A DNA stretch of 64,000 nt from an uncultured Actinomycetes bacterium (lineage in GTDB: Bacteria > Actinomycetota > Acidimicrobiia > Acidimicrobiales > Ilumatobacteraceae). Numbering within the stretch: the stretch's first letter is position 1; every line of letters starts with the position of its first letter. Positions 2,426 to 44,047 of the stretch are shown here, piece by piece. The translations under genes and the position numbers were made by a program. The DNA lies in NCBI GenBank assembly GCA_963822385.1, contig CAWGHJ010000003.1:1627919-1691918 (forward strand), read 5' to 3'. The notes below the pieces were generated by a model that saw only the letters and a program-made list of their open reading frames with translations, was not told where the DNA came from and searched no databases.

Positions 2426-2430
2426 CCGAC

Positions 2431-7564: not shown

Positions 7565-7635
7565 TCACGGGCGACGCGGCCCGATCGACGCCACCTGATT
7601 CCAGCAACGGTGGCCCATCGGCCACACTGTGACCG

Positions 7636-9001: not shown

Positions 9002-9666
9002 TGCGCGCTCGGTTGACGCTCCTCGCCGCGACGTTGGCGGGCGCTGCGGTGTCCTTCGGCGCATGCAGCGTGGTCGGCAACGGCAAGGTCGACACCGTCG
9101 ACCCGCCGTTCGGCCTGGACCAGACGCTGCCCAGCAGCACCACCATCGCCACGACCACCACCGAGTTGGCGACCACCACGACCGGGCTCGACACGAGCAC
9201 CACCGGGGTACCCACCGAGGCGGTGCGGCTGTACTACATCACCAGCGGGCAGCTGAACTTCATCCCCACGCCGCTGGCCGCGGGCCCGTCGCTCGGCCAG
9301 ATCGTCGCCGCGCTGCAGGCCGGTCCGATCGACAACGAGCTCGGTGTCGGGTTGCGCAACGCCGTCCCCGACGACGTCGAGATCAAGGCCAACGACAACA
9401 ACGCCGGTGTCGCCATCGTCGAGCTGCCGGACGGATTCTTCGACGGCATCCCTGCCGCCGACCAGCGCCTGGCCGCCGCGCAGTTGGTGCTGACGCTCAC
9501 CGACAGCCGTGGCATCGGGCAGGTGCAGTTCAACCAGGCCGTGCAGAAGCCGTCGGGCGCGCTGGCACCGGCGGGCGAGCTGCTGTCGCGCAGCGACTTC
9601 CTCGCGCTCGTCGAAGGCGCCACGCCGCCGAGCTCGTCGACCACGAGCACCACGACCGCCGGGTGA
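9001..9666 (+). CDS. GerMN-domain lipoprotein (LpqB-like position downstream of the kinase)
   Basis: The signal peptide has lipobox AAVSFGAC, followed by a Thr-rich linker. LYYITSGQLNFIP...LQAGP...GLRNAVP resembles the GerMN fold family. The start overlaps the kinase stop. Confidence 0.6.
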   Translation: MRARLTLLAATLAGAAVSFGACSVVGNGKVDTVDPPFGLDQTLPSSTTIATTTTELATTTTGLDTSTTGVPTEAVRLYYITSGQLNFIPTPLAAGPSLGQIVAALQAGPIDNELGVGLRNAVPDDVEIKANDNNAGVAIVELPDGFFDGIPAADQRLAAAQLVLTLTDSRGIGQVQFNQAVQKPSGALAPAGELLSRSDFLALVEGATPPSSSTTSTTTAG

Positions 9667-9692
9667 CGCACGCCGATAGCGTGAACCACCTC

Positions 9693-10532: not shown

Positions 10533-11408
10533 TGGCCACGCCGGCGGCCGATGTCGACATCGACGAGGCGCTGGTTCGACGGCTGTTGCAGGCGCAGCGA
10601 CCGGATCTCGCCGGCCTGGCGATCCGGGTCGTGGCGAACGGCTGGGACAACGCGATCGTTCGCCTCGGCGAGGAGTGGATGGTGCGGCTGCCGCGTCGCA
10701 CGGCCGCGGCCACGTTGGTGGAGCACGAGCAGCGCTGGTTGCCCGAGTTGGCACCGCGACTGCCGCTCACCGTTCCCGTGCCGCTGTTCGCCGGCTCCCC
10801 CAGCGACGACTTCCCCTGGCGCTGGAGCCTGTGCCACTGGATCCACGGATCGCCGGCATCCGCCGTGCAGCCCACCGAGCCGACGACAGCGGTCGACGCG
10901 TTGGCATCGTTCCTACGCGCGCTGCACCAGCCCGCTCCGGACGACGCACCGGCGAACCCGGTGCGCGGCGTGCCGCTACGTCACCGACACGACACCGTCC
11001 TGCAACGGTTCGACACGCTGGCCGACGTCGTCGATCGCGAGCCAGCGCTCACGCGTGTGGGAGCGACTGTCCTCGACGCCCCGATGGGACGGCCCGGCGC
11101 TGTGGCTCCACGGCGACCTGCATCCCGCGAACATGCTCACCGCGGACGGATCTCTCGCCGCGATCATCGACTGGGGCGACATCACGGCCGGCGATCCGGC
11201 GACCGACCTCGCCGTCGCCTGGATGATGTTCGATCGGCCGCACCGAGATCGGCTGCGGTCGGTCACCGGCACCGACGACGCCACCTGGCACAGGGCAGGA
11301 GGTTGGGCGCTCAGCCTGGCGCTCGCCTACCTCACCGGCGATGCCGAGTCGCCGATGCCCGCCATCGGCCGACGCACCCTCGCCGAAGTGCTCGACGAGT
11401 TCGGCTGA
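10532..11408 (+). pseudogene. aminoglycoside/phosphotransferase (APH) family kinase, frameshifted near 11040-11056
   Basis: The N-terminal part (GWDNAIVRLGEEWMVRLPRR..) is in one frame. The catalytic part (WLHGDLHPANML...IIDWGDITAGDPATDLA) is in the +1 frame. The ATG overlaps the era stop. Confidence 0.8.
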
Positions 11409-11428
11409 CGCTCGCGTACGATCGGGCG

Positions 11429-11972
11429 ATGATCGCCGTCGTCCGTGCCCTGCACCGATCGTCCGAGTACACGTTCACGAAGGAATCCGTCGACGAACTC
11501 GAGTTGCTCGCCGGACTCGGCGTGGCCGGCGACGTCCATTCAGGAGCAGCGGTTCGGCACCGCAGCCGCATCGAACGCGACCCGACCCAGCCCAACCTGC
11601 GCCAGGTGCACCTGTTCGACGGTGAGGTGCTCGACATGCTCGCCGCCGAGGGCTTCGCCGTCGCACCCGGCGCGCTCGGCGAGAACGTCACGACGAGCGG
11701 GCTCGATGCGCTGTCGCTCCCGACCGGCACGTTGCTGCGCATCGGCGGCGATGCGCTGATCGCGCTCACCGGAGTCCGGAACCCGTGCCGTCAGATCGAG
11801 GCCCGCTTCCCGGGTCTGCTCAAGCGCATGGTCCACCGCGACGACGTCGGGCGAGCTGCACCGTCTGACCGGGGCGATGTCGGTCGTCCTGCAACCCGGC
11901 GTGGTGCGCGTCGGCGACCCGATCGAGGTCGTCCTACCGCCCGGCGCGCCCCAACCCCTCCAACTCGTCTGA
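11429..11972 (+). pseudogene. MOSC domain protein, frameshifted near 11848
   Basis: GENVTTSGLDALSLPTGTLLRIGGDALIALTGVRNPCRQIE reads in one frame. After the shift the sequence is GELHRLTGAMSVVLQPGVVRVGDPIEVVLPPGAPQPLQLV-stop. Confidence 0.75.
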
Positions 11973-11995
11973 CTGGATGGAGTTCCAGAACGCGG

Positions 11996-13555
11996 TCAGA
12001 CCTGGCTGGCGCGGCCGGCCCAGAAGGGGGAACGCAGCTCGCGCTTGAGCACCTTGCCGCTGCCGGTCTTGGGCAACTCGTCGATGAACGTCACCGACCG
12101 CGGCACCTTGTAACCGGCGAGGTGCTCCTTGGCGAACGCGACCACGTCGTCGGTCGTCATCGACCCGCCCTCACGGACGACCACCACCGCGTGGACGGTC
12201 TCGCCCCACTCCTCGCTGGGCACGCCGAACACGGCGACCTCGAGCACGTCGGCGTGGTGCTCGAGCGCGGCCTCGATCTCGGCCGGGTAGATGTTCATGC
12301 CCCCGCTGATGATCATGTCCTTCTTGCGGTCGCAGATGTAGATGTAACCCTCGTCGTCGCGGTAGGCGATGTCGCCGACGGTCTGATAGCCGTGCTTGTT
12401 GTCGGCCATGAACTTGTCGTGCTGCTTGTAGTAGTCGGCGAACACGCTGGGGCTCTTCACGAACAGCTCGCCGGTGTGCTCGGGGCCAACACCCTCGACC
12501 TCGTTGCCCTCGTCGTCGAACAGCTTGATCTCGACCATCGGCGCGGGCTGCCCGCACGAACCGGGCTTGCGCAGTTGGTCCTCTGGACGCAGCACACAGT
12601 TCACGCCCAGCTCGGTGCTGCCGTACACCTCGAACAGGCTGTCGCCCGGGAAGTAGGCGAGGTACATCTGCTTCAGGGCGAAGCTCCACGGCGCGGCGTT
12701 GGCGATCATCCGCTTCATCGAGCCGACGTCGTACTTCGCCTTCACCTCGTCGGGCAGGTTGCAGATCATGCGGATGGGCGTCGGCGCGCTGAACGTGGAC
12801 GTGACGCGGTACTTCTGCACGAGGCGCAGCCAGTCCTCCGGGTTGAACTTGCGCTGCAGCACCACGGTCTGGCCCAGCGTGAGGGCGATGCCCATGAACC
12901 CGCCGGGACCCGAGTGGTAGAGCGGGCCGGTGGGCACGTACACGTCGTCGGGCGTGTACCCGATGTGCGCGAGCAGCGCGGCTCCCTGGGCCGCGCCCTG
13001 CGTACCGCGACGGAGCGCGCCCTTCGGCTTGCCGGTGGTGCCGCTGGTGTAGATCATCGTCGAGCCGGGCTCGGTGGCCTCGGGGATCTCCGGTTCGGTG
13101 GACGGCGCCGAGTCGATGAGCGGGTCGATGGCGATCATCCCGTCGGGGACGTCGCCGTCGAACACCAGGTACTGCTGCACCTGCGGCAGGTCGCCGCGGA
13201 TGCGCTCGAACATGGGCGCGAACTCGGCGTCGACGTAGACGATGGTGGCGTCGCAGTGGTCGGTGACGTACGTGGCCTCCTCGTCGCTGAGGCGGTAGTT
13301 CAACGGCACCGCCGTGACACCCAGCTTGCGGGCCGCATTGATCATCACCACCAGGCCGATGGAGTTCTGCCCGCACCACACGACCTTGCTGTCGCCGGGC
13401 ACCACGCCCATGCCCAACAGCACGTTGGCCAGCTTGTTGGCCTGCTCGTTCAGCTGCGCGTAGGTGAGTTGGCGGACCGTGCCATCGGGACGATCGTCGA
13501 TGACCGCCGGCTTGTTCGGCTGGGTGATCGAGTAGGCGGTCAGGAAGTCGGCCAT
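11996..13555 (-). CDS. AMP-dependent acyl-CoA synthetase/ligase
   Basis: YTSGTTGKPKGA is the AMP-binding motif. Also present are GYQTVGDIAYRDDEGYIYICDRKKDMIISGGMNIYP and GKVLKRELR. Confidence 0.9.
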   Translation of the reverse strand: MADFLTAYSITQPNKPAVIDDRPDGTVRQLTYAQLNEQANKLANVLLGMGVVPGDSKVVWCGQNSIGLVVMINAARKLGVTAVPLNYRLSDEEATYVTDHCDATIVYVDAEFAPMFERIRGDLPQVQQYLVFDGDVPDGMIAIDPLIDSAPSTEPEIPEATEPGSTMIYTSGTTGKPKGALRRGTQGAAQGAALLAHIGYTPDDVYVPTGPLYHSGPGGFMGIALTLGQTVVLQRKFNPEDWLRLVQKYRVTSTFSAPTPIRMICNLPDEVKAKYDVGSMKRMIANAAPWSFALKQMYLAYFPGDSLFEVYGSTELGVNCVLRPEDQLRKPGSCGQPAPMVEIKLFDDEGNEVEGVGPEHTGELFVKSPSVFADYYKQHDKFMADNKHGYQTVGDIAYRDDEGYIYICDRKKDMIISGGMNIYPAEIEAALEHHADVLEVAVFGVPSEEWGETVHAVVVVREGGSMTTDDVVAFAKEHLAGYKVPRSVTFIDELPKTGSGKVLKRELRSPFWAGRASQV

Positions 13556-13689
13556 GAGCGCGCTCCTGAGCGAGTCGGGCGGTGTTCTTCGCAAGTCGTA
13601 GCGGAAACAACGCAGCCCGAACGAGCCGATCCCCATGTGAATCCCCCACGGCTTCACCGTAGAGCATCCGCGAGTGCAATGCTCTCGTC

Positions 13690-14151
13690 ATGGCACCTCG
13701 CATCATCAACGGCAGCGCAGAACTCAAGTCGGCAATCGGCGAGCATCTCGGCTACTCGCCCTGGATGGAGATCTCCCAGGAACGCGTCAACCAGTTCGCC
13801 GAGGCGACGGGCGATCACCAGTGGATCCACATCGACGTCGAGCGCGCCAAGAAGGAGAGCCCCTTCGGTGGCCCGATCGCCCACGGCTATCTCACGCTGT
13901 CGCTCGCGCCGGTGCTGTTGCCGCAGGTGGTCGTGTCCACCGGGTTCAAGATGGGCGTCAACTACGGCTGCAACAAGGTGCGGTTCATGTCGCCGGTGCC
14001 GGTGGGCGCCAACCTGCGCCTCGGCGTCAAGCTGCTCGCGGTCGACGACATCGCCGGCGGTGTCCAGAGCACCTACGAGCTCACCTTCGAGACGGAGGGT
14101 GCCGCCAAGCCGAGCTGCGTCGCCGAAGTCATCTTCCGCAGCTACGAGTGA
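13690..14151 (+). CDS. MaoC-like (R)-specific enoyl-CoA hydratase/dehydratase
   Basis: Hot-dog fold signature FAEATGDHQWIHIDVERAKKESPFGGPIAHGYLTLSL. Confidence 0.9.
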   Translation: MAPRIINGSAELKSAIGEHLGYSPWMEISQERVNQFAEATGDHQWIHIDVERAKKESPFGGPIAHGYLTLSLAPVLLPQVVVSTGFKMGVNYGCNKVRFMSPVPVGANLRLGVKLLAVDDIAGGVQSTYELTFETEGAAKPSCVAEVIFRSYE

Positions 14152-14152
14152 C

Positions 14153-15019
14153 GTGACACGCCCCTCCCTCCATGTGGGGTGCCCGATGTGGGCGCAGCGC
14201 GCATGGGTGGGCAACTACCTCCCCACCGACACGGCGCACGGGCACGAACTGCACCCGTACAGCCGTTTCCTCAACGCGGTCGAAGGCAACACCACCTTCT
14301 ACGCGCTCCCGCCGGCGAGCACCGTCGAGAAGTGGGCGACGCTCGCCGAGCCGGGTTTCCGGTTCGTGTTCAAGGTGCCGCGCTCGATCACCCACGACGC
14401 ACGTCTGCGCGACGTGAAGGCCGAGTTGGCCGCGTTCGTGGAACTGCTGTGGCCACTGGGCGACCTGGTCGGTGGGTTGACGTTGCAGCTGCCGCCGTCG
14501 TTCGGCCCGCGCGACCTGGATGCGCTCGACACGGTGCTGCGCGAGGCCCCTCCGGTGTGGCGTTGGTCGGTGGAGGTGCGGCATCCGGAGTTCTTCGGCG
14601 GCGACGGACGACGCTCACTCGAGCAGGTGCTCGGGCGCCACGGCAGCGAACGGGTCGTGCTCGACACCCAGGAACTGTTCCACCGCACGCCCTACAGCGA
14701 GGCGGGTCGCGAAGAGTGGCGCACCAAGCCGCGAGTGCCGCTCATCGCCGAGCCACTGACCGAGCACCCCATCGTCCGCTTCATCGGCTCGGACCACCCC
14801 GAGCTCACCGATGTCGGTCTGCAGCGCTGGGAGCAGACGATCGCCGAGTGGCTCGACGAGGGCCGCTCCCCGACGCTGTTCGTGCACACCCCCGACAACA
14901 CGCGCAGCCCGGCACTGGCCCGAGCGTTCCACGAGTCGGTGTGCTCCATCGTCGACGGTCTGGAACCCCTGCCCGAGCCCCTGCCGGTCGACCGAGCCGA
15001 GCAGGGCTCGCTGTTCTGA
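14153..15019 (+). CDS. DUF72 family protein
   Basis: VGCPMWAQRAWVGNYLP...YSRFLNAVEGNTTFYALP...FRFVFKVPRSITH is typical DUF72/UPF0759 sequence. The start is uncertain (GTG 14153, GTG 14174 or ATG 14186). Confidence 0.8.
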   Translation: MTRPSLHVGCPMWAQRAWVGNYLPTDTAHGHELHPYSRFLNAVEGNTTFYALPPASTVEKWATLAEPGFRFVFKVPRSITHDARLRDVKAELAAFVELLWPLGDLVGGLTLQLPPSFGPRDLDALDTVLREAPPVWRWSVEVRHPEFFGGDGRRSLEQVLGRHGSERVVLDTQELFHRTPYSEAGREEWRTKPRVPLIAEPLTEHPIVRFIGSDHPELTDVGLQRWEQTIAEWLDEGRSPTLFVHTPDNTRSPALARAFHESVCSIVDGLEPLPEPLPVDRAEQGSLF

Positions 15020-33150: not shown

Positions 33151-33419
33151 GTTCGACCGGCGAGTGGAATCATTCCGCCTTACGGTAGCGAACCGCAGCG
33201 GCATCGGGTGTCACCCGTTCGGCGCGGTCGACCACCGGGTCGGCGCGCCCGCTGCGCGCCTGGTCACGCATCGTGTTCGACCCACCACGCGACCGTTCCG
33301 ATATCGACAAGGAGCGCGCAAGAAATCACCCCTTGCGCGAAAGTGCAGGTTATGGGTTATGATGTGGACACGTTTCCCGCGGGCGGGCGTCCGTGTTCCA
33401 ACTGACGGGAGGGAGGCGC

Positions 33420-35699
33420 ATGAAGCGGGCATCGACACTTCTCACCTGGTGGTACCTCGCGATCGGCGGGGCGATCACGGCCGCGGCCGCCGCGGCCTCG
33501 GACGACCGCGTGCGCTGGATCCTCGAACTCGTCGCCATCGTCCTCGTCCTCGGCACCATCGTCGCCGCGCGCGTCCGCCACCTGCTCACACCGGCGCTGG
33601 CCCTGCTCTCGGCGGGAGCGGTGCTCGCGTTCGGGTTGTCCCGGCTGCTCCCCGACGACACCGCGCCGTCGGCCCACCTCGCCGCGGTCATCGCCGGCGT
33701 CACGGGCTACGCCATCACCCTCGGCGCCCTGTTCATCCTGCTCGAGCGCCGCGGCGTGCACATCCGCAACGGACTCGCGGCCGACGCCCTGGTCGTCGCC
33801 CTCAGCGCCTGGGTGATCGCCTGGCCGGCGCTCGTGCAGCCGATCATCGACCGGCACGGCGTCAACGCCGCCACCGTCCTGCACTCGATCCACCAGCCCA
33901 TCGCCTCGGTGGTCCTGTTCCTGGCGGTGACCCTGCTGCTGGACACCCGCAACCGCAGCGTCTCCGCGTGGCTGCTGGGCGGTGCCATCACCCTGCAGGT
34001 GCTCGCCGACCTGGTCGACGACCTCATCGACGCCGGCCACCTGGCCGGCGGGTTCGATCGTCTCGCCATGTCGCTCGGCATCGCCGCTGCCGTGTGCCTG
34101 GGCGGTGCGTTCCTGCACCCCAGCCTCAGCGCCCTGGGCAGCACGCAGCCCGACGACGAGCAGTCCACCCTCGGCCGCCTCGTCGTCACCATCGGTTCGC
34201 TGTCGTTCCCGGTCATCGTGCTCGGTGCCACGTCGGCCACCGGCACCGCCGACAAGATCGTCCGCACGTTGTCGGCCATCGCGCTCGCGCTGCTCGTCAC
34301 CGTCCGCGTCATCCACACCGTGCGCGCCAACTCACGCAGCCAGGCCGCGCTCCTCCACGGCGCCCAGACCGACGAGCTCACCGGCCTGCCCAACCGCAAC
34401 GTGCTGCTGCAGGAGATCACCAACCTGCTCGGCCGTTCGTGGGCCAACGATCAGCTGCCGACGCTGTTCTACATCGATCTCGACCGGTTCAAGAACATCA
34501 ACGACTCGCTCGGCCACGCTGCCGGCGACCAGGTGCTGCGCCTGGTGGCGCACCGCCTGCGCGACACCGCTCCCGCCGGCGCCACGGTCGCCTACGTGTC
34601 GGGCGACGAGTTCGTGGTGCTGCACCCCATGCCCACCTCACAGGACGACGCCGGCGCGGTCGCCGACGAGCTGCTCGCCGTGCTCCGCGAGCCGTTCGCA
34701 CTGGACCACGGCGACGTGTTCATCAGCGCCAGCATCGGCATCGCCACCATCAGCGCCACCTCGAGCAGCTCGCCCGCCGACCTGGTCCGCCACGCCGACT
34801 CGGCGATGTACCGGGCCAAGGACGAAGGCCGTGGCCGCCACGCCGTGTACGAGGAGGCGATGAAGGACCGCGTCACGCATCGCCTCGCCGTCGAGACCGC
34901 GCTGCACCGGGCCACGGACCGCGGCGAGATGCGCCTGTACCACCAGCCGATCCTCGACCTGTTCACCAACGAGGTCACCGGCTTCGAGGCGCTCATGCGC
35001 TGGCAGCAGGCCGACGGCACCATCGTCTCCCCCGCCGAGTTCATCCCCATCGCCGAGGACAACGGTGTCATCGTCTCGCTCGGCAAGTGGGCACTGCTCG
35101 AAGGCCTCACCCAGTTGCGGTGCTGGATCGACGAAGGCGTGTGCAGCCCGAGGGCCACCATGTCGGTCAACGTGTCGGCCCACCAGCTGCGCGAGCCCGA
35201 CTTCCCCGACACCGTCAGCGAGGCCCTCACCCGGTCGGGCGTGCCGGCATCACTGCTGTGGCTGGAGGTCACCGAGACGGTGATGATCAACGACGCCGAG
35301 CTGGCTCGCACCACGCTCACCCGGCTCAGCGAGCTCGGCGTGCGCATCGCGCTCGACGACTTCGGCACCGGCTTCTCGTCACTGTCGCTGCTGCAGAAGT
35401 TCCCGCTGCACCGCATCAAGATCGACCGGGCGTTCGTCCGCGGCCTCGCCGAGAGCGAGAACGATCGTTCACTCGTGCGCACCATCATCGCCATGGCCAA
35501 GGCCCTCGACCTCGACATCGTCGCCGAGGGTGTGGAGAGCAAGGCCCAGCTCGACCTGCTGCGCGACATGAAGTGCAAGAAGGCGCAGGGCTACCTGATC
35601 AGCCACCCGGTGCCGGCCGACGCCATGCGCACGACCGTGGCCGCGCTCGAGCGCATCGACCAGTTCCTGCCGCTGCACCGCACGATCACCACCAACTGA
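33420..35699 (+). CDS. membrane-anchored GGDEF-EAL protein (diguanylate cyclase/phosphodiesterase)
   Basis: About 8 N-terminal TM helices. The GGDEF domain carries an SGDEF variant (VAYVSGDEFVVL). The EAL domain reads FEALMRWQ, LEVTET, DDFGTGFSSLS, KIDRAF, EGVE. Confidence 0.9.
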   Translation: MKRASTLLTWWYLAIGGAITAAAAAASDDRVRWILELVAIVLVLGTIVAARVRHLLTPALALLSAGAVLAFGLSRLLPDDTAPSAHLAAVIAGVTGYAITLGALFILLERRGVHIRNGLAADALVVALSAWVIAWPALVQPIIDRHGVNAATVLHSIHQPIASVVLFLAVTLLLDTRNRSVSAWLLGGAITLQVLADLVDDLIDAGHLAGGFDRLAMSLGIAAAVCLGGAFLHPSLSALGSTQPDDEQSTLGRLVVTIGSLSFPVIVLGATSATGTADKIVRTLSAIALALLVTVRVIHTVRANSRSQAALLHGAQTDELTGLPNRNVLLQEITNLLGRSWANDQLPTLFYIDLDRFKNINDSLGHAAGDQVLRLVAHRLRDTAPAGATVAYVSGDEFVVLHPMPTSQDDAGAVADELLAVLREPFALDHGDVFISASIGIATISATSSSSPADLVRHADSAMYRAKDEGRGRHAVYEEAMKDRVTHRLAVETALHRATDRGEMRLYHQPILDLFTNEVTGFEALMRWQQADGTIVSPAEFIPIAEDNGVIVSLGKWALLEGLTQLRCWIDEGVCSPRATMSVNVSAHQLREPDFPDTVSEALTRSGVPASLLWLEVTETVMINDAELARTTLTRLSELGVRIALDDFGTGFSSLSLLQKFPLHRIKIDRAFVRGLAESENDRSLVRTIIAMAKALDLDIVAEGVESKAQLDLLRDMKCKKAQGYLISHPVPADAMRTTVAALERIDQFLPLHRTITTN

Positions 35700-35773: not shown

Positions 35774-35826
35774 CGTTCTTGTCATTCGCTGACCGGGGAT
35801 TCGCCGGTCAAGGCATGACAAGAACG
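35774..35826. other. 53-nt nested perfect inverted repeat at the core-genome / cassette-array junction
   Basis: CGTTCTTGTCAT tcgct GACCGG ggattcg CCGGTC aaggc ATGACAAGAACG. This gives a 12-bp outer and a 6-bp inner perfect stem. Confidence 0.6.
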
Positions 35827-36306
35827 AGGATTCGACCGACCCATCGCTGCCGATCTGCTCGCTGGACAACGCATCCCACTTCGGGCAATCTGCGCTACTT
35901 GGCTTCCGACTTCTCCCGAGACAACGACGGACGTACGCCGTTGCACTACGCGGCCCTCGATGACGACGTCCAAGGTGTTGAAGAAGGCCTGCGAAGTGGC
36001 ATCGATCCGGATTGCGCTGATCGCGAGGGCTTCACGGCTCTTCACTTCGCCGCGCAGAATCATTCGGTCACCGCAGCTCGCCACCTCCTCGAAGGCGGCG
36101 CCACCGTTGATCAGGTCAACAGGTTCGGGAACTCGCCGTTGAGCACCGCAGTGTTCAACTCCAAGGGGCGTGGCGAGATGATCGAGTTGCTCCGCGAGTG
36201 GGGAGCCGATCCGTTCCTGGCCAACAACTTCGGCAAGACGCCGCTCGAGTTGTCGCGGATGATCGCCAACTTCGACACCGCCCAGTTCTTCGGCGACCTC
36301 GCCTAA
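35815..36306 (+). CDS. ankyrin-repeat protein (cassette 1)
   Basis: About 3 ANK repeats: DGRTPLHYAAL.., EGFTALHFAAQNHSVTAARHLLEGGA, FGNSPLSTAV. The ATG at 35815 reads through repeat R1. An alternative TTG at 35899 lies just after R1. Confidence 0.8.
   Translation: MTRTRIRPTHRCRSARWTTHPTSGNLRYLASDFSRDNDGRTPLHYAALDDDVQGVEEGLRSGIDPDCADREGFTALHFAAQNHSVTAARHLLEGGATVDQVNRFGNSPLSTAVFNSKGRGEMIELLREWGADPFLANNFGKTPLELSRMIANFDTAQFFGDLA
35841..35897 (+). repeat. cassette-array repeat copy R1
   Basis: ccatcgCTGCCGATCTGCTCGCTGGACAACGCATCCCACTTCGGGCAATCTGCGCTA. Confidence 0.75.
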
Positions 36307-36350
36307 GGCAGAACTGCCGCTAGGTGCGACCGGGTGGTGTCGCGAGCGAC
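36307..36350 (+). repeat. cassette-array repeat copy R2 (short form)
   Basis: GGCAGAACTGCCGCTAGGTGCGACCGGGTGGTGTCGCGAGCGAC begins directly after the ankyrin TAA. Confidence 0.7.
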
Positions 36351-36351
36351 C

Positions 36352-36696
36352 TCACGGACACGTGAGAGCCACCATGTCGATGAAGCCGAATGTGGCGTCC
36401 ATCATCTCCTCCATGCCCTCGCCTGCTGGCGGCGGATCGACCGCCACGGTAAGGAGCTTCTGAACCGCGTCGCGCTGGGCCGGCGATAGTGCGCTAGAGG
36501 CGAGGAGGACCTCAAGCCGACCCTCAATGTTCGGGAGCCGACCGGACGTAGTCAACCCATCACCAGCGAGGTTCCGTAGCTCAACGCAGACGTCCTGCTG
36601 CGTGGTCAACTCGGGGCCACCTGAATCGGAGCAACCCAAGACAAGAAGCCCAGCGACGAGCGAGGCGCCGACAACTCGAACTGTGTTGCGCCCCAT
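36352..36696 (-). CDS. hypothetical lipoprotein (cassette 2, reversed)
   Basis: MGRNTVRVVGASLVAGLLVLGCSDSGG has a signal peptide and a lipobox-like LVLGC. No family was recognised. Confidence 0.5.
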   Translation of the reverse strand: MGRNTVRVVGASLVAGLLVLGCSDSGGPELTTQQDVCVELRNLAGDGLTTSGRLPNIEGRLEVLLASSALSPAQRDAVQKLLTVAVDPPPAGEGMEEMMDATFGFIDMVALTCP

Positions 36697-36715
36697 CGCC
36701 GCCACCTTACCGACG

Positions 36716-36776
36716 AGCGCAGAACTGCCGTTCTGCGCGCTGGACAAAGACGGCCACTTCGGGCATTCTGCGCTAG
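36716..36776 (+). repeat. cassette-array repeat copy R3 (best-preserved long form)
   Basis: AGCGCAGAACTGCCGTTCTGCGCGCTGGACAAAGACGGCCACTTCGGGCATTCTGCGCTAG. The terminal inverted repeats are AGCGCAGAA / TTCTGCGCT. Confidence 0.8.
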
Positions 36777-36791
36777 CCCGGTGAAACCTTC

Positions 36792-36998
36792 ATGGCGCCG
36801 CTGCTGGAGATGCGAGGACGGACGATCGTGAATCGATTCAGGTGGATTCAATACGCGGTTTTCGGGCTGGCCTTCTTCAGCTTTCTCTGGCTCACCATGG
36901 GCTTCGGTCTACGGATGCTCGTGGGCTTCGTCGTCGTGAGCGCGATCTGCATCTTCTCGGCGGACTACAGGACCGAAGCAAAGGGACGCCGCCCCTAG
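36792..36998 (+). CDS. small two-TM hypothetical protein (cassette 3)
   Basis: 68 aa: WIQYAVFGLAFFSFLWLTMGFGLRMLVGFVVVSAICIF. The TAG stop is the first triplet of repeat R4. Confidence 0.5.
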   Translation: MAPLLEMRGRTIVNRFRWIQYAVFGLAFFSFLWLTMGFGLRMLVGFVVVSAICIFSADYRTEAKGRRP

Positions 36999-37030
36999 CT
37001 GCCGCTCTGGGCGGCTGCGGTGCGCGAGGC
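36996..37030 (+). repeat. cassette-array repeat copy R4 (degenerate short form)
   Basis: TAGCTGCCGCTCTGGGCGGCTGCGGTGCGCGAGGC. Confidence 0.55.
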
Positions 37031-37037
37031 TGCACCG

Positions 37038-37286
37038 ATGTTCAGTTGTCCGGTGTGCGGCGCGAGTGAGTTGGCGGTGAAGCCATACGCGCACTGGCCA
37101 CCCGATGATGCGGACGCTCTGAGACCGCCCTACGAGGACGTCCTCGGGTCGCCGTCGTACGAGGCGTGTCCGTCCTGCGGGTTCGAGTTCGGCAACGACG
37201 ACAACCCCGGTACAGCCGCTCCGCTTTCATTCGCTGAGTATCGAGTCGAGTGGACTGCGCGAGGCCGACCGCGTTTCCGGCCATAG
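37038..37286 (+). CDS. small Cys-rich zinc-ribbon protein, CPCC-family-like (cassette 4)
   Basis: MFSCPVCGASEL...YEACPSCGFEFGNDDNPG...SFAEYRVEW has two CxxC pairs. It resembles what I recall of the Cys_rich_CPCC family. The TAG stop lies inside R5. Confidence 0.55.
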   Translation: MFSCPVCGASELAVKPYAHWPPDDADALRPPYEDVLGSPSYEACPSCGFEFGNDDNPGTAAPLSFAEYRVEWTARGRPRFRP

Positions 37287-37338
37287 CGCAGAGCTGCCGC
37301 TATGCGTGCTGGACAACGGCGGCCGCGTCGGGCGTTAG
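37284..37338 (+). repeat. cassette-array repeat copy R5
   Basis: TAGCGCAGAGCTGCCGCTATGCGTGCTGGACAACGGCGGCCGCGTCGGGCGTTAGG. Confidence 0.8.
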
Positions 37339-37991
37339 GAACGGGTTGCGGCCGCTTCTGTAAGAACGGCGAGTCGCTTCCTTGAAATCGGGCCATCGCG
37401 CTCGGCCACATCGTCGTGCGCTCGACTACGCCATGCTGTCGCCATCGGGTGATTCGCCACGGTCGCCAGCGCAGCGATGCTGAAACGAATCAGACCCGGT
37501 GTTGCGGGAACGACAAACGGCGAGGCCGCCGTTGGCTTGTCGAGTAGCTCCGTCAGGAGGTCGATGACCGAGTCGGTCGTTGGTAACCCGTCGAGGAATC
37601 CAATGACCGCCGCAAGATCTTCTCGAAGTCCTTGGATGACGCCCTCTCGCGAGTTGCCGATCAGCTGATCGGCGGTGAACATGGCGACGCGAGCGGGCCC
37701 GATCAGCTTCGTCGTGCTGCCCAAGGCGAAGCACTGGCTGACCTGATTCGGATCGAGCGCCTCGCCGGGCCACAGCATCTGCAGCATCGTCTGGTGGAAC
37801 AGACCGAACACCGGCGTGTGTCTGCCGTGCGCGCTGTCGAGCCCTACACGTTGCTCGTAGCCGGCCGCGGGCCGCATCCACACGCGGCGTGAGCGAGAGA
37901 AGCCTGCTTCCTCGAGTTCGGCGTCGAACGACGCACGAAGCGCGGAGTCGATCACCGTGCGGTCAGCCACAGGGACACCATTATGTCTCAC
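37335..37991 (-). CDS. hypothetical protein, N-terminus DUF4304-like (cassette 5, reversed)
   Basis: DSALRASFDAELEEAGFSRSRRVWMRP..EQRVGLDS resembles the DUF4304 N-terminal pattern (tentative). The start is uncertain (GTG 37991 to 37955). Confidence 0.5.
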   Translation of the reverse strand: MRHNGVPVADRTVIDSALRASFDAELEEAGFSRSRRVWMRPAAGYEQRVGLDSAHGRHTPVFGLFHQTMLQMLWPGEALDPNQVSQCFALGSTTKLIGPARVAMFTADQLIGNSREGVIQGLREDLAAVIGFLDGLPTTDSVIDLLTELLDKPTAASPFVVPATPGLIRFSIAALATVANHPMATAWRSRAHDDVAERDGPISRKRLAVLTEAAATRS

Positions 37992-37995
37992 CCGC

Positions 37996-38058
37996 AGCGC
38001 AGGGCTGCCGATAGGTGCGGTTTGACTCACCAGCCCCGAACGGACAAAGTGCGCTCGG
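37996..38058 (+). repeat. cassette-array repeat copy R6
   Basis: AGCGCAGGGCTGCCGATAGGTGCGGTTTGACTCACCAGCCCCGAACGGACAAAGTGCGCTCGG. Confidence 0.75.
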
Positions 38059-38531
38059 TGACCGTGATTCCCGTGTTTGCTGCCTCTCATGGCCGGAGTC
38101 GACTCTTCGCGTGGTTGGGTCGCGTGCTTGCGGCGCTCGCTCTTGCGGCGGCGGGTGTCTGGTGGGGCGACTTCATGCATCGCGCTGGCATGACGTACTG
38201 CGAGAGGAACCCGGGATGCAACGACATCGACAGCCTCGGCGTCGAGGGACTGGTTGCGTTGGTGTTGTGGCTGGTGACGGCGATCGCGACGGTCTTCATT
38301 TGTCTGAGTGCCGTACTGGCTGCACCCTCGACCTATCGGGGGCGGGCTGTGTGGGCCGCGATGATTGGCTTCTCGGTGTTCGTGGCACACCGTTACAACC
38401 TCATCTGGGCGGTCATTGTCACATGCGCTGCGACGTGCGCCGTCCTGTTCGTGTCAGACGATTTGCCTGACCCAGCGCGGCGTCGCCGTTGGGCTCGAAA
38501 GCGTGGACCACGGTCCATCGTCGAGTCGTAG
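38058..38531 (+). CDS. hypothetical 4-TM membrane protein (cassette 6)
   Basis: The GTG lies in the right edge of R6 (GCGCTCGGTGACC). Hydrophobic helices include LFAWLGRVLAALALAAAGVWW, LVALVLWLVTAIATVFICLSAVL, AVWAAMIGFSVFV and LIWAVIVTCAATCAVLFV. The longer ATG start at 37983 would read through R6. Confidence 0.5.
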   Translation: MTVIPVFAASHGRSRLFAWLGRVLAALALAAAGVWWGDFMHRAGMTYCERNPGCNDIDSLGVEGLVALVLWLVTAIATVFICLSAVLAAPSTYRGRAVWAAMIGFSVFVAHRYNLIWAVIVTCAATCAVLFVSDDLPDPARRRRWARKRGPRSIVES

Positions 38532-38550
38532 CACGCGCTGTTCACCGTCC

Positions 38551-38611
38551 GCGCATAGCTGCTGATAGGTGCCCTGGACAAACGCCGTGCGGTTCGGCCA
38601 ACCTGCGCTGG
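38551..38611 (+). repeat. cassette-array repeat copy R7
   Basis: GCGCATAGCTGCTGATAGGTGCCCTGGACAAACGCCGTGCGGTTCGGCCAACCTGCGCTGG. Confidence 0.75.
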
Positions 38612-38907
38612 TGACCGAGGAAGCGGAACCAGGCGAGTGGCAGCGCCGATTCGAGGAGTCGGTCGCCCGAGAGGACGCCAGACATGAGGCCGACGCTACG
38701 GGCTGCCTGGCCCAGCTGACCGATCTTCGATTGTGGGCTGCCGCGATTCTCATCCCGCTCAGCCTCGCTGCCGCTGGTCTCGGCTGGGTGGCGACCAGAC
38801 TCGGGTGGCCGCGCTGGGTCGGGCCCTCTGCGGCCGGCGTAGTCGCCGGTGCCATCGCATGTGTGTTCATCGCTCGGCGAATGAACAGCCGCCGACAGAG
38901 CCAGTGA
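38611..38907 (+). CDS. hypothetical 2-TM membrane protein (cassette 7)
   Basis: The GTG lies at the right edge of R7 (GCGCTGGTGACC). TM helices are LWAAAILIPLSLAAAGLGWVA and AAGVVAGAIACVFIA. An alternative GTG at 38569 lies inside R7. Confidence 0.45.
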   Translation: MTEEAEPGEWQRRFEESVAREDARHEADATGCLAQLTDLRLWAAAILIPLSLAAAGLGWVATRLGWPRWVGPSAAGVVAGAIACVFIARRMNSRRQSQ

Positions 38908-38910
38908 CCC

Positions 38911-38968
38911 GTGCAGAGCTGCCGCTATGCGTGGACGAAGCAAGGTGCCACACTCTCTCAATGCTGCG
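38911..38968 (+). repeat. cassette-array repeat copy R8
   Basis: GTGCAGAGCTGCCGCTATGCGTGGACGAAGCAAGGTGCCACACTCTCTCAATGCTGCG starts 3 nt after the cassette-7 TGA. Confidence 0.7.
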
Positions 38969-39273
38969 AAGGATTCCGCCTCGCGCTCGGACTCATCGGA
39001 CTGATGCTCGGATTGCAGGCCTGCGATCGTCCGTTCGACACTTCGGTTCAGGTCGTCAGCACGGGGAGCCAGGTGTGCGTCGAGGGAGTTGAGAACCACA
39101 CCTCCAAGTGCTTCGCCAGTGGTGACCTACCCGCCGAACTCGCAGCCGCGCCGGTAGGTGCCTGCTTCGTCGTAAGGATGAGCCAAAGCGTTGAAATCCT
39201 GTCGGTGCGCAGGGCCTGCCCGGCAGCAAGACGCGAGCAGATGGAACGCGGCCACGCACAGCGCTGCCGATAG
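38961..39273 (+). pseudogene. hypothetical lipoprotein (cassette 8), apparent +1 frameshift right after the start
   Basis: ATG 38961 gives MLRRI. One base later the frame of ORF 38911 gives RLALGLIGLMLGLQAC DRPF.., which is a signal peptide plus lipobox. The TAG stop lies inside the R9 core. Confidence 0.4.
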
Positions 39274-39315
39274 GTGCGGACCATCGGCAGCTGCGGGCGT
39301 TTCTGTCGCGCTAGC
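39258..39315 (+). repeat. cassette-array repeat copy R9 (last)
   Basis: ACAGCGCTGCCGATAGGTGCGGACCATCGGCAGCTGCGGGCGTTTCTGTCGCGCTAGC. It has an internal 8-bp inverted repeat, CTGCCGAT/ATCGGCAG. Confidence 0.75.
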
Positions 39316-39394: not shown

Positions 39395-39423
39395 TTGACA
39401 ATCGAACGTATGTTCGATATGAT
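39395..39423 (+). promoter_or_regulatory. sigma-70-type promoter with embedded perfect LexA/SOS box
   Basis: TTGACA (39395-39400), a 17-nt spacer and TATGAT (39418-39423). The spacer is aTCGAACGTATGTTCGA, i.e. TCGAAC-N4-GTTCGA at 39402-39417. The ATG lies 6 nt after the -10, so the transcript is probably leaderless. Confidence 0.7.
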
Positions 39424-39429
39424 GGGATC

Positions 39430-40712
39430 ATGGACGAGATCTTCGATCTTCTCGACAGCGCCGCTGCTGCGGCTGCGGATCTCGTCCCCTTGTGTACGGG
39501 AACGGTGTCGCAACGTTGTGCCCTGCTCGCCCTGCAGACCCACCTCGATCGCATCGGGGTGGTCCAGGCCAAGCTCCTCGCCTTGGCCGAGGCGTCGAAA
39601 GCCCATGAGGGCACCGGGGCACGGAACGCGGCGGGTGGTTGGCGGGGAAGTCGAAGTCGTCGCTCGGTTCGGCTCGCAAGAAGGCGGAGTTGGGTGAGGC
39701 GATGAACAAGTCGAAAGCCCTCGACGACGCCGTCACCAACGGCGAACTCTCGCCCGACGCCGCGGCCGCGTTGCACGACGCGGTGACGAACCCACCGGAG
39801 GGTGCGTCCGAGGCTGATGTGGATCAGTTGGTCGACGCGGTCAAGGGTGCCGATCCGTTCGAAGCCAAGCAGGCCGCGAACCGGTGGAAAGAGATCCTCT
39901 CCTCCGAGTCGGAAGAGCAGGCCGAGGAACGCCGCCACCAACAACGCTCCGTGCGGATGACCGCCCCCTGCGATGGTCTCGTCACCATCAACGCGACATT
40001 GCCGGTGCTGCAAGCGCGTCAGGTGTACGCGTCGGTGTCCCACATTGCCGGCCAGTACGGCAAGGACGACTCGCGCACCACCGAGCAACGCTTGGCCGAC
40101 GGGCTCGTCGAACTCGCCACCGCGTACGCGAAGGGTCAGATCACCGGTGGGCGGGAGAACCCGAACCTGCTGATCACCATCCCCGTCGACTCACTCACCG
40201 GACACTCCGACGAACCCGGCGTCACCAGTTGGGGTGACCGGATCCCCGCGTTCGTCGTGCGCCGCCTGGCGGAGAATGCGACCCTGCAGCGGGTGTTGCA
40301 GGCCGGGTCGCACATCCTCGACCTCGGCCGGTCGGTCCGCCTCGCGACCGATCAGCAGTACCAAGCGCTTGTCGTTCGCGACGGTGGGTGCCGGTGGCCC
40401 GAGTGTCACCTCCCCGCCGCGTGGTGTCAGATCGATCACCTCACCGACTGGATCCTCGACGGGCCGACGGATCTGGACAACCTGGTCCTGTGGTGCACGT
40501 TCCATCACCACGAGAAACACCGCCCCGGCGTCACAGTGTTGGGCAACGCCCACGACCTCCGCCTCCAACTCGCGGACGGCACGATCGTGCACTGCCCACC
40601 CAAGAACGGCAGAGACGTCACCAGGAACTCAAGTTCGCGCCAGACCAGCCGGGCAGAGCAGGGCGACCTGTTCGACGAACCGCCCGAACGATCTACCCAG
40701 GCGGCGGCCTGA
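39430..40712 (+). pseudogene. DUF222 / HNH endonuclease (REP13E12-type), frameshifted near 39633
   Basis: The N-terminal DUF222-like helical region (MDEIFDLLDSAAA..LLALAEASKAHEGTGARNAAG) is in one frame. The rest is in the next frame: LAGKSKSSLG...ATDQQYQALVVRDGGCRWPEC..IDHLTDW..NLVLWCTFHHHEKH, which contains the HNH motif. Confidence 0.85.
40616..40641 (+). repeat. solitary copy of the 26-bp GAAC-N4-GTTC repeat family
   Basis: cgtcaccagGAACTCAAGTTCgcgcc lies inside the last 100 nt of the HNH ORF. Confidence 0.65.
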
Positions 40713-41766: not shown

Positions 41767-41809
41767 ACCCCCCAGGGTATCACCCTGAGGGGTCTGTGCA
41801 ACGATCGGA

Positions 41810-43924
41810 TCAGCCGACGGCGAGGTCGACCGTCCCCTCCCCCAGCGCCACGGGCGCCGGCGGCTCGACGGCAGGCGCACCGCCGCCGAGGTGCTGGATC
41901 AGCGTCGCCGCCAGGCCGTCGATGGTGCTGCCACCACCGGTGACGAGCACGTTCGGCATGACGTCGATGCGGCCCTCGGCGATCGCGTTGATCGCTGCGA
42001 CGATCGCGGTCGCCGCCGCGCCCAGCGCCTCCTTCTGCTTCTCGAAGCCCTCGGCGCGGGCCAAGCCCAACGCCTCGGCGGCCTTGGCCTCGGCCAGACC
42101 CACGGCCTCGGCGCGACTGGCCTCGGCAGCACCCACGGCCTGCACCTTGGTGGCCTCGGCGAGGCCGATGTTCGAGATGCGGCTGGCGTCGGCCTTGCCC
42201 ATGACCTCCACCTTCGTCGCCTCGGCGCGGGCCGTGGTCTCGACGTACGACGCCTCACCCCGCGCCTGCTCGGCACGGGCCTCGGCGGCGTTGTGGTTGA
42301 TCTCGATGCTGACCTGCGAACTGGCCAGCTGGCCCTGCATGTCGGCCGTGCCGCGTGCCTTCTCGACCTCGATGCGGGCCGACTGCGCCTCGCGCTGCTC
42401 GTGGAACGTCGCCTTCTCCTGCTTGGCGATCTCGCGCTCGGTCAACACCTGCACGAGCTCGACCGGGAAGATGACGTCCTGGATGTACACGCCGCGCGTC
42501 TCGACGTCGTACGACGCGAGATAGCGGGTGACCGCCTCGAGCGCAGCCTGCTGCACCTCGTCACGGGTCTCGATGAAGCGCACGGCCTCGAGCCGCTGCA
42601 GGGTGTTGCGGAAGTGGTTGCCCACTGCCGACTGCAGCACCTCGTTGACCAGGTTCTGCATCGTCCCGACCATCGAGATGACCTTCGGCGCCTTGGTGTC
42701 GCTGACGTGGATCTGCACCTGCAGGTCGATCGAGAACACGAAGCCTTCACGGCTCTTGCCGTCGATCGCGCTGAGCGACGAGTCGAGGTCGTGGGCCTTG
42801 CTCGATGCGCTCGCCCAGTTGAGGGTGAGGATCGACGTGGGCACGATCTCGGCCGCGTAGATGCGCGGGTTGATCGGGTACTTGCCGGTGCGCAACGGCT
42901 CTTGCCAGATGCCGCGACGACCGGGTTGCACGATCGAGCCGAACTTGAACTCGACGCCGCTGGTGTCGAGCGTGGGCAGACCCACGAAGCTCTTCACCAC
43001 GGCGACCTCGCCCTGACGGACGACGAGCATCGGCACCATCTCGACGCGCACCAGGAACGGGTTCAACAGGTAGGCGCCGTACAGCAGCGGGTCGTGCTGC
43101 AGACCGATGCGACCACCGTGGGCCATGAAGGCCTGGAAGTCCTGGTAGTTGTTGTGCAGCTCGTTCTTGCGACCGAGCAGCGTGTCGATGATCTCGGCGT
43201 CGGTGGCTCCCTCGGACTCCATCGCCTCGACGTCGGCGAAGCCGCCCAGGCGGCTGGCGATGTCGCCGGCCGGCAGCGGCTCGCCCTCGAGCGCGGTGAC
43301 GATGCCGACCATGTCGGTCGTGCCGTTCGGGGCGATGATGGTGACCCGCAACTGCTCGGGGCTGAGCCCGAACACGTCGGGGGTGATGCCGCCGCGTTGG
43401 CGGACCACGGCCTGCAGTTCGCTGGACACCGGTGCGCCGTAGACGCGGCTGGCGGTGATCACGAGGAACGCCGCAGGATGGATCGGCACCAGGGTGCCCG
43501 GGGGCAGCACGGGACGCTGGACGCCCTTCTGCCCGCCGTTGGCGAGGAACGCATCGAGGTCGTTGAAGTTCCCGAACTCGGGACGGAACTCGCCGCTCTT
43601 CGCGCCGATCTTCAGCGGGTCGCCCACCTGGGCGATGACCACGCCGATCTCACCGGCCGGCACCTGCACCCACGGGTGCTTGGTGACGGCGTTGACGGGC
43701 CACAGCTTGAAGCGCAGACCCGGCATGAGCAGCCCGGCCTGGAAGCCGGCCTCACCCTGCAGGGCGACGGGGTTGCCCTCGTCGAGGCTGCGCCGAGCGA
43801 GGCGCTTGTTGACCAGGCCGACCTCGGAGGGGCCGATGCTGTGGAAGGACCGCAGCAGGATCAGGACGATCGCTGCGACCACGACCAGGATGATGACAAG
43901 GAGAACGATGCCGACGGTCGACAT
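41810..43924 (-). CDS. flotillin-like SPFH/band-7 domain protein
   Basis: An N-terminal TM is followed by an SPFH-type core and a long Ala/Glu-rich coiled-coil with repeated AEA..KV..G units, as in flotillin/YqiK. Confidence 0.85.
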   Translation of the reverse strand: MSTVGIVLLVIILVVVAAIVLILLRSFHSIGPSEVGLVNKRLARRSLDEGNPVALQGEAGFQAGLLMPGLRFKLWPVNAVTKHPWVQVPAGEIGVVIAQVGDPLKIGAKSGEFRPEFGNFNDLDAFLANGGQKGVQRPVLPPGTLVPIHPAAFLVITASRVYGAPVSSELQAVVRQRGGITPDVFGLSPEQLRVTIIAPNGTTDMVGIVTALEGEPLPAGDIASRLGGFADVEAMESEGATDAEIIDTLLGRKNELHNNYQDFQAFMAHGGRIGLQHDPLLYGAYLLNPFLVRVEMVPMLVVRQGEVAVVKSFVGLPTLDTSGVEFKFGSIVQPGRRGIWQEPLRTGKYPINPRIYAAEIVPTSILTLNWASASSKAHDLDSSLSAIDGKSREGFVFSIDLQVQIHVSDTKAPKVISMVGTMQNLVNEVLQSAVGNHFRNTLQRLEAVRFIETRDEVQQAALEAVTRYLASYDVETRGVYIQDVIFPVELVQVLTEREIAKQEKATFHEQREAQSARIEVEKARGTADMQGQLASSQVSIEINHNAAEARAEQARGEASYVETTARAEATKVEVMGKADASRISNIGLAEATKVQAVGAAEASRAEAVGLAEAKAAEALGLARAEGFEKQKEALGAAATAIVAAINAIAEGRIDVMPNVLVTGGGSTIDGLAATLIQHLGGGAPAVEPPAPVALGEGTVDLAVG

Positions 43925-44005
43925 CGCTCACCCCCTTTCTCGGGTTGCCCCGCATAGGTGAACGTGTTTGCCGACCAGACTTCCCGGCGCACCAGACGAG
44001 ATGGA

Positions 44006-44047
44006 CTTGTTCTGCACCTGTCTGCTTCTTGTTCTACACCTGTCTAC
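44006..44047 (-). promoter_or_regulatory. two 20-bp direct repeats upstream of the flotillin gene
   Basis: CTTGTTCTGCACCTGTCTGC (44006) and CTTGTTCTACACCTGTCTAC (44028) have a 22-bp period. They lie 82-123 nt upstream of the flotillin ATG. The second overlaps the PAP2 gene stop. Confidence 0.25.

Follow-up and report, generated by a model that had tools for sequence, protein, structure and literature searches.

Integrons are the textbook system for the capture and shuffling of single genes, and several other arrangements resemble them in part. The pdif modules of Acinetobacter plasmids are small, include toxin-antitoxin modules and are bounded by arm-spacer-arm sites for XerC/XerD, a recombinase encoded elsewhere; these sites occur in alternating (inverted) orientation, resemble the chromosomal dif site and have a 6-nt spacer. 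Correia elements, mycobacterial interspersed repetitive units (MIRUs), repetitive extragenic palindromes (REPs) and bacterial interspersed mosaic elements (BIMEs) are dispersed genome-wide or stand in tandem at one spot, in both orientations; Correia repeats can supply promoters, and mycobacterial MIRUs share bases with the stop and start codons of the neighbouring genes. The additive island fGI1 of ‘Ca. Actinomarinales’ has direct repeats made of tRNA fragments and larger insertions (PMC7771536), and surveys have reported no complete integron in Actinobacteria, without giving a reason (PMC4889954; 10.1101/2022.02.28.482270). Here we describe an array of short genes in a 64,000-nt stretch of DNA (the window) from an uncultured member of the Ilumatobacteraceae (contig CAWGHJ010000003.1). 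Between positions 35841 and 39315, nine copies of a repeat, each about 26-62 nt long, alternate on the + strand with eight short open reading frames (ORFs). A reading of the sequence made before this analysis (the original prediction) had offered either a divergent relative of integron arrays or an undescribed cassette-capture system. We favour the latter and give about an even chance to a new kind of mobile one-gene cassette array, present in Ilumatobacteraceae and other Acidimicrobiia, which would be integron-like, recombine at a core site and consist of cassettes that mostly bring their own promoters.

The repeat copies are referred to as junctions (R1 to R9) and the intervening genes as cassettes (C1 to C8). 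Their coordinates in the window are as follows.

35841..39315, + strand: whole array, with nine junctions and eight cassettes.
35774..35826, no strand assigned: inverted repeat bordering the island on its left, with arms of 26 nt (85% complementary) and a 1-nt loop, 15 nt before the first core.
35841..35899, + strand: junction R1, lacking the left arm; core CTGCCGAT at 35847-35854, -35-like TGGACA at 35863-35868, -10-like CAATCT at 35886-35891, TTG start of C1 at 35899 (+7).
35899..36306, + strand: cassette C1, ankyrin-repeat protein (Pfam Ank, E = 6e-18).
36306..36330, + strand: junction R2, arm-core-arm only; core CTGCCGCT at 36314-36321, with the C1 stop TAA in the position of the left-arm TAG.
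36352..36696, - strand: cassette C2, reversed, a small putative lipoprotein judged from its translation (signal peptide ...LLVLGC).
36716..36776, + strand: junction R3, the best long copy; arm AGCGCAGAA at 36716-36724, core CTGCCGTT at 36725-36732, TGGACA at 36741-36746, CATTCT at 36764-36769.
36792..36998, + strand: cassette C3, a 68-aa membrane protein whose TAG stop lies inside R4.
36996..37030, + strand: junction R4, variant form; core CTGCCGCT at 36999-37006, followed by the cassette-specific CTGGGCGGCTGCGG.
37038..37286, + strand: cassette C4, an 82-aa zinc-ribbon protein, also present in arrays L043 and L071/L072.
37284..37344, + strand: junction R5; TAG stop of C4, arm AGCGCAGAG at 37285-37293, core CTGCCGCT at 37294-37301, TGGACA at 37310-37315, -10-like hexamer decayed to CGTTAG; a reversed ORF follows.
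37335..37991, - strand: cassette C5, reversed, 218 aa, matching only itself among 5.8 billion proteins.
37995..38057, + strand: junction R6; core CTGCCGAT at 38005-38012, -35-like TTGAC, CAAAGT at 38045-38050, GTG start of C6 at 38058 (+7).
38058..38531, + strand: cassette C6, membrane protein.
38550..38610, + strand: junction R7; core CTGCTGAT at 38559-38566, TGGACA, CAACCT at 38599-38604, GTG start of C7 at 38611 (+6).
38611..38907, + strand: cassette C7, membrane protein.
38910..38935, + strand: junction R8, arm-core-arm; core CTGCCGCT at 38919-38926; the GTG at 38911 in its left arm is the sole in-frame start of C8.
38911..39273, + strand: cassette C8, putative lipoprotein (...GLMLGLQAC), with its TAG stop inside the core region of R9.
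39255..39315, + strand: junction R9, the last; arm, core CTGCCGAT at 39264-39271 and arm, with no -35 and no ORF after it; a second, inverted core, ATCGGCAG, lies at 39283-39290, 11 nt from the first.

All nine same-orientation copies of the original prediction are present on the + strand at the places it had named. A profile built from the long copies and searched with nhmmer recovered eight of them (starts at 35842, 36308, 36716, 37284, 37995, 38550, 38910 and 39255; E values from 3e-15 to 5e-3). The ninth (36996, core at 36999-37006) is a short variant recovered by pattern search, and it was accepted because in L043 and L071, too, this gene is preceded by an identical variant. No profile match below E = 0.03 was found in the other 60 kb of the window. 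The core pattern with up to three mismatches gave 18 matches, versus 7.5 ± 3.0 in shuffled sequences, and the matches with up to two mismatches all lay inside the array. The predicted layout also held: start-to-start intervals measure 280-712 nt and contain one ORF each, six on the + strand and two on the - strand. The predicted drop in G+C content is real but smaller than the hand counts had suggested (55-63% against 65-80%), the island having 62.6-66% and the flanks about 68-72%. The short copies are not truncated long copies, as they keep the arm-core-arm portion and continue into a different, cassette-specific right part; within one array, copies are about 65-80% identical and have not been homogenised. 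An array of single-gene cassettes parted by a discrete directional repeat, as originally proposed, is supported. The ORF translations of the window that were read by eye resemble core metabolic genes, with Pfam run on part of the window. The window contains no tRNA, which ruled out a tRNA-derived att repeat.

The repeat consists of two parts. The first is a site of about 26 nt, composed of an arm AGCGCAGAG, a near-invariant asymmetric core CTGCCGNT and an arm AGGTGCGCT; the second, which is optional, is promoter-like, with TGGACA, 17 nt, CAnTnT and 6-7 nt preceding a GTG or ATG codon. Per-column counts over an alignment of 35 distinct long copies gave (A/C)GCGCA(G/T)A(G/A) as the left-arm consensus and about GTGCGCT as the right arm, the ends of the consensus repeat being AGCGCAGAG and TCTGCGCT. 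The core CTGCCG (columns C16-G21) is 97-100% conserved and is followed by N, T23 (94%), M, K and G26 (100%). Conservation is lower in the arms than in the core, and the only dyad is GCGCA-N14-TGCGC, which surrounds the asymmetric core. An asymmetric and most conserved centre with weaker inverted arms would fit a crossover region rather than an operator. The octamer GCCGATAG in the junction core (for example at 38007-38014) resembles the sigma-28/WhiG-type -10 consensus, GCCGATAA, with no matching -35 conserved upstream. R9 is the sole strongly folding copy (39264-39290, z = -2.98), by way of its private inverted core copy, and this double core could be a head-to-head site pair or an inversion scar.

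The original prediction had treated the repeat as one palindromic unit of 45-65 bp; the repeat itself stands, although its right two thirds in the long form, which appear to be a promoter-like module abutting the start codon, had been overlooked. The module comprises TGGACA (GACA 86-100% conserved; TTGAC in a minority), a variable stretch, TCGGGCA and nTnT. An ORF-opening GTG, ATG or TTG stands at +6/+7 in 16 of the 23 copies with an intact CAnnnT, and in none of the 14 with a decayed hexamer (background 5.3%). Within the window, this geometry holds for C1, C6 and C7, and the decayed R5 faces a reversed ORF. No Shine-Dalgarno sequence lies between hexamer and start codon; leaderless genes are common in Actinobacteria and have the same geometry. 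It is shared, too, by the canonical promoter of the DUF222-HNH gene to the right of the array, TTGACA-17-TATGAT-6-ATG.

Three cassettes recur in different arrays with different neighbours. C4, which lies between C3 and C5 in the window, is also found in L043 and L071/L072, and its neighbours differ in each. In a three-way alignment, identity of 83-89% extends from the upstream CTGCCGCT until after the downstream CTGCCGMT; the left arms upstream differ among the copies, as do the sequences after the downstream core. A membrane-protein cassette common to L027 and L056 shows identity from core to core. The third cassette, encoding a ribbon-helix-helix antitoxin and a Doc toxin, is 93% identical between L021 and L009 amid unrelated flanks; its homology begins after the upstream core, and its downstream end is ambiguous, the L021 site being degenerate. 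The breakpoints lie in the left-hand third of the repeat rather than at its right end. Cassette homology begins and ends at or close to the core, and each junction is thus a hybrid, its left arm belonging to the upstream cassette and its right arm and module to the downstream one. The ends of the array fit this model: R1 has the core and the promoter module but no left arm, and R9 has arm, core and arm with neither a module nor an ORF after it. Among the 64 homologues of C4 found, those in Nocardioides, in an element resembling an integrative and conjugative element and in core contexts lack the repeat. The repeat is therefore not part of the gene, and its similarity among copies does not come from duplicated gene ends, a possibility raised by the original prediction.

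Beyond the window, 185,579 species genomes scanned once with the pattern GCAGRRCTGCCGMTAKGYGYG yielded 30 loci and a metagenome scan 31 more, and further loci were reached via homologues of the cassettes. About 11 of the 30 species-genome loci are metagenome-assembled genomes of Acidimicrobiia or Actinomycetota, and several copies occur only in those; named records with several copies are all Acidimicrobiia or unclassified Actinomycetota. Viral contigs gave no pattern match. Three or more sites are present in 11 sequences (the window and 10 loci; L071 and L072 contain the same array), with 62 sites in total. Across 79 sequences (602 kb), the sites form runs of a single orientation with a median spacing of 588 nt, and the runs are confined to variable islands, in low-GC3 stretches flanked by repeat-free core genes. 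The repeat is accordingly not scattered in the manner of REPs, as neither the rest of the 64 kb nor these sequences showed copies outside such runs. Examples are L056, with 13-14 sites in two diverging runs, and L071, from wastewater, with 8-10 sites in 5.2 kb. The L056 runs (3-8783, - strand; 10857-14373, + strand) diverge from a repeat-free centre, as do those of L021 (231-3168, - strand; 5262-6198, + strand). No recombinase was found in these two centres; one holds UPF0158 and the other DUF2293 plus a lipoprotein, and a methyltransferase gene is also present.

The genes carried by the arrays are of the usual accessory kind. They include toxin-antitoxin pairs, DUF4238, a methyltransferase, lipoproteins and a single gene without homologues, with putative acetyltransferase and Nudix genes recognised by reading translations. 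Similar cargo can be arranged without the repeat, as seen in two strains with low-G+C islands of small ORFs at one locus (L075, 5198-14769; L076, 2276-11868). These islands differ in content, have many co-oriented ORFs (among them DUF4265, DUF6896, PadR and a C4 homologue) and contain no junction repeat of any kind. Insertion sequences were also observed near or within arrays. Within a few hundred nt of junction sites, L027 (1-1107) and L059 (2-481) carry an IS110-family transposase gene, the two pieces being 87% identical, and an IS1380 element (2017-3435) is located inside the L015 array. Elements of the IS110 type target repeats such as attC or REP, and the IS110 and IS1380 elements near arrays may parasitise the junction site. 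The array of L005 (4002-4214) and L032 (5262-5474) sits within an island located at tRNA-His/tRNA-Lys, where a remnant of an integrase is also present; arrays are often cargo of tRNA-type genomic islands. In the literature searched, we found neither the core sequence nor a description of an Ilumatobacter repeat of this kind, nor any description of integrons in Acidimicrobiia genomes.

At the locus itself, the array is flanked on the left by a GGDEF-EAL gene (33393-35699), whose orthologues are named Ilumatobacteraceae, Acidimicrobiales or Actinomycetota, and on the right by the DUF222-HNH gene (39430-40712). In L062, a metagenome-assembled genome whose GGDEF-EAL protein is 94% identical, synteny is lost at window position 35705 and regained at 40853, with a PNPOx gene in the place of the array. 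A second relative (L063, 87%) carries PNPOx and two small ORFs along with the same DUF222 promoter but no repeat, and a 61% relative has neither array nor PNPOx. The array is thus strain-specific, and cassette content is not fixed among relatives, in keeping with the original prediction, given that the closest ones lack the array at this locus. Neither the inverted repeat at 35774-35826 nor the flanks of the array have a counterpart in the other loci, which ruled out a conserved ‘attI-like’ left flank. The DUF222-HNH gene was excluded as a mobilising enzyme, as L063 has its start and promoter and no repeats. Its promoter (39395-39432) looks leaderless and is overlapped by a palindrome, TCGAACGTATGTTCGA (39402-39417), that resembles the actinobacterial LexA box; the same promoter and palindrome are present in L063 (3945-3992). 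The reading frame of the gene shifts near 39640, reflecting a pseudogene or a sequencing error. A second strain-specific segment lies near the array (41783-44043) and includes a 704-aa ORF on the - strand (41810-43924) that is absent from L062 and SPFH/flotillin-like by eye.

We propose the following mechanism on the basis of these sequence comparisons. The 3′ end of the upstream cassette would provide the left arm, (T)AGCGCAGAG, often holding the stop codon of that gene, and the 5′ end of the downstream cassette would provide the right arm, AGGTGCGCT. Most downstream ends would add the module (-35 TGGACA or TTGAC, a 17-nt spacer, CAnTnT preceded by GGG, and 6-7 nt before GTG or ATG), from which the ORF could be expressed as a leaderless mRNA. 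The two halves would meet at the near-invariant, non-palindromic 8-nt core CTGCCGNT, and the arm, the 8-nt core and the inverted arm would together have the make-up of a simple core site in double-stranded DNA, recognised by a site-specific recombinase. This would most likely be a tyrosine and possibly a serine recombinase, with its gene in another part of the genome. By recombination inside the core, cassettes could be excised, inserted and exchanged between arrays. Site-specific exchange is favoured because the site is directional, its centre is near-invariant and non-palindromic, its inverted arms are weak and the breakpoints fall at the centre. In the fullest version, Acidimicrobiia would own an integron-independent capture platform with a dedicated recombinase, a site of about 26 bp (arm, CTGCCGNT, arm) and a built-in leaderless promoter; this we put forward tentatively, as possible rather than probable.

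Several observations weigh against site-specific exchange of self-promoted cassettes. The -10-like hexamer begins with C instead of T in 34 of the 35 copies, with GGG before it, matches TATAAT at just 2-3 of 6 positions and was passed over by a consensus promoter scan; if the module is a promoter, it may be read by an alternative sigma factor. No recombinase could be tied to the junction site in the window or the loci. When the window was searched by tblastn, none of the five queries (two tyrosine recombinases, one resolvase and the transposases of IS110 and IS1380 elements) detected a recombinase (best E = 0.046); the original prediction had likewise seen no tyrosine or serine recombinase in the 64 kb, Pfam coverage of the window being partial. 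The tyrosine recombinases that adjoin the L015 and L021 arrays are 29% identical to each other and score 21.9 and 50.7 bits with the TIGR02249 integron-integrase model, whose cut-off is 265. The L015 integrase abuts a tmRNA/tRNA-like 3′ end (GGGGTTCGATTCCCCTCGTCTCCACCA, about 6150-6205), and the integrase remnant in L005 and L032 lies at tRNA-Lys. The low mutual identity, the low IntI scores and the tmRNA/tRNA positions argue against the adjacent integrases as the cassette recombinase, and they are probably integrases of the carrier islands. In L034, a large serine recombinase (Resolvase, Recombinase and Zn_ribbon_recom domains) is encoded about 9 kb from the array. The evidence for exchange comes from the three shared cassettes available, and their breakpoints are resolved just to the core ± about 10 nt, since the copies are alike there. 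The arrays L071 and L072, from two samples, have the same order, with no shuffling in progress seen, and the sole indel between the near-identical strains L005 and L032 is a 214-nt microhomology deletion inside a cassette; site-specific cassette loss was ruled out for this pair, the deletion not being a cassette-sized event at cores. The L034 array continues into L031 and L050, and upstream of it lie the serine recombinase and, by eye, type I restriction-modification genes (1082-3019 and 4243-11648).

Among the other explanations, the original prediction had named an integrase-less cluster of attC sites (CALIN) of a divergent type, whose highly divergent attC sites would be recombined in folded single-stranded form by an IntI with its gene elsewhere. 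A mostly co-oriented single-ORF array, stop codons that overlap the repeat, integron-like cargo such as toxin-antitoxin pairs and complementary consensus ends, with an end-to-end fold possible on the - strand of R3, are all consistent with it. However, no RYYYAAC...GTTRRRY pair (regular expression, gap of 40-130 nt, both strands) occurs in the array or in the whole window, as originally stated, and the predicted end-to-end hairpin is present in the consensus and in R3 but is not conserved among the copies; an attC-like fold with extrahelical bases is not supported. Over the 35 copies, its nine end pairs plus TGCCG/CGGGCA leave 72.0% of cells paired versus 72.1% in shuffled alignments, its covariation score was reached by 216 of 500 shuffles, and no measure exceeded the slid or shuffled controls; the left arm paired against the right arm likewise shows no covariation above controls. 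Single-stranded folds of both strands, computed with DNA energy parameters, gave z values of -1.2 to +1.0 for 11 of 12, with structures that differ among copies and no common fold, and R3 prefers the competing local hairpin that had also been predicted. Because pairing equals that of shuffles and the folds do not surpass theirs, the end complementarity is a property of the consensus and is not maintained copy by copy. The repeat is conserved in sequence across genomes and not in structure, which is the opposite of attC, its breakpoints lie in the left third and not at the right end, the neighbouring tyrosine recombinases reach 22 and 51 bits against the cut-off of 265, and surveys of integrons came up with no complete one in Actinobacteria (10.1101/2022.02.28.482270; PMC4889954). 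An attC-type hairpin was ruled out by counting covariation, by comparison with slid and shuffled controls, by folding both strands and by the absence of R″/R′ boxes; the CALIN reading is already contradicted on its defining features and is extremely improbable. A structured RNA, acting as an intercistronic processing or stabilising signal or as a small RNA repeated within one transcription unit, is very improbable. The repeat does lie on the strand of most ORFs and in intercistronic positions, and the L015 copy at 1224-1295 has, by eye, arm changes compatible with G-T wobble, but covariation and a stable or shared fold (DNA energy parameters) are both lacking, and the breakpoints at the core would be left unexplained. 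Rfam gave no match at the gathering score or at E up to 1, which ruled out a known RNA family.

A selfish repeat of the REP/BIME type or a miniature inverted-repeat transposable element (MITE), Correia-like and promoter-bearing, could also have been inserted between island genes. Its short length, its inverted ends, (T)AGCGCAGA...TCTGCGCT(A), its promoter-like interior and the IS110-family transposase genes near sites in L027 and L059 would suit such an element. Against this, no copies exist in about 60 kb of flanking core genome or in the core-gene parts of other loci, the copies occur only in runs with one orientation per run, and nearly every intergenic gap of an island has one. The two halves of a junction move with separate cassettes, target-site duplications are not evident, and what the relatives lack is the island as a whole and not single repeats. 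No RAYT (Y1/HUH) transposase was noticed in the annotated loci, in which no systematic RAYT search was made. We consider a selfish repeat improbable. The alternative that keeps weight, though still unlikely, is a common promoter/operator of co-regulated island genes, shuffled by homologous or microhomology recombination over the roughly 60-nt repeats with no dedicated recombinase; it does so because the sole strain difference is a microhomology deletion and L071 and L072 share one order. A promoter-like module at a fixed distance from the start codon, a dyad GCGCA-N14-TGCGC just upstream of the -35 in the position of an activator and the failure to find a recombinase all agree with it, and homology-driven exchange also predicts breakpoints in the most conserved stretch. 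Yet the asymmetric centre, not the dyad arms, is most conserved, which is unusual for an operator, and the arm-core-arm portion persists without the promoter module in R2, R4, R8, R9 and many copies elsewhere, even after the last gene. R1, moreover, lacks the left arm expected of the operator of gene 1. Invariant identity between sites amounts to about 6-8 nt, with cassette-specific arms, and such identity is too short for RecA-type exchange; nor have the repeats of one array been homogenised.

If the reading as a mobile one-gene cassette array is correct, the system would be a functional analogue of integrons in a phylum essentially without them. A different cassette system in a class widespread in freshwater, soil and wastewater would mean that this organisation of accessory genes had more than one origin. 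A further gain would be a new site of recombination, presumably with a new recombinase to match, for use in research or as tools. With the 21-nt pattern, which pulls arrays from metagenomes, the flexible gene pool of Ilumatobacteraceae could be catalogued, and a fusion of site and promoter, if real, would lift the position-dependent expression that limits integrons.

Cassette arrays as such are known, and there is a substantial chance that this one is a separate system. It shares with integrons tandem cassettes that are compact, mostly single-gene and mostly co-oriented, junctions that each bear a directional repeat, stop codons that overlap the repeat and cargo of toxin-antitoxin, lipoprotein and homologue-less genes; in both, the same cassette can occur in different arrays, and arrays occur without a nearby integrase. 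Cassette limits lie in the conserved core, and the shared cassettes are accordingly exchangeable units bounded there, although the core (CTGCCGNT) is different. The array nevertheless fails every sequence, structure and integrase criterion of integrons that was examined. Its site is conserved in sequence and has no AAC/GTT boxes, covariation or hairpin with extrahelical bases; its crossover would lie in the left third, so that about 40 nt of the repeat form the 5′ end of the next cassette; and most of its cassettes seem to carry their own promoter, whereas integron cassettes depend on Pc. It also has no IntI and resides in a phylum essentially devoid of integrons. With pdif modules it has in common discrete small modules, short double-stranded core-type sites, varied contexts and a recombinase elsewhere, but its sites are all direct within a run, have an 8-nt core, are chromosomal and show no evident likeness to known dif sites. 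Correia elements, MIRUs and REPs are likewise short intergenic repeats with inverted ends, but they do not delimit exchangeable gene units. The fGI1 island is similar in that islands of Acidimicrobiia grow by cassettes delimited by a direct repeat that serves as a recombination target, with transfer between genera (PMC7771536); the present array differs from it in a repeat that is not tRNA-derived, in single-gene cassettes and in a promoter-like module within the repeat.

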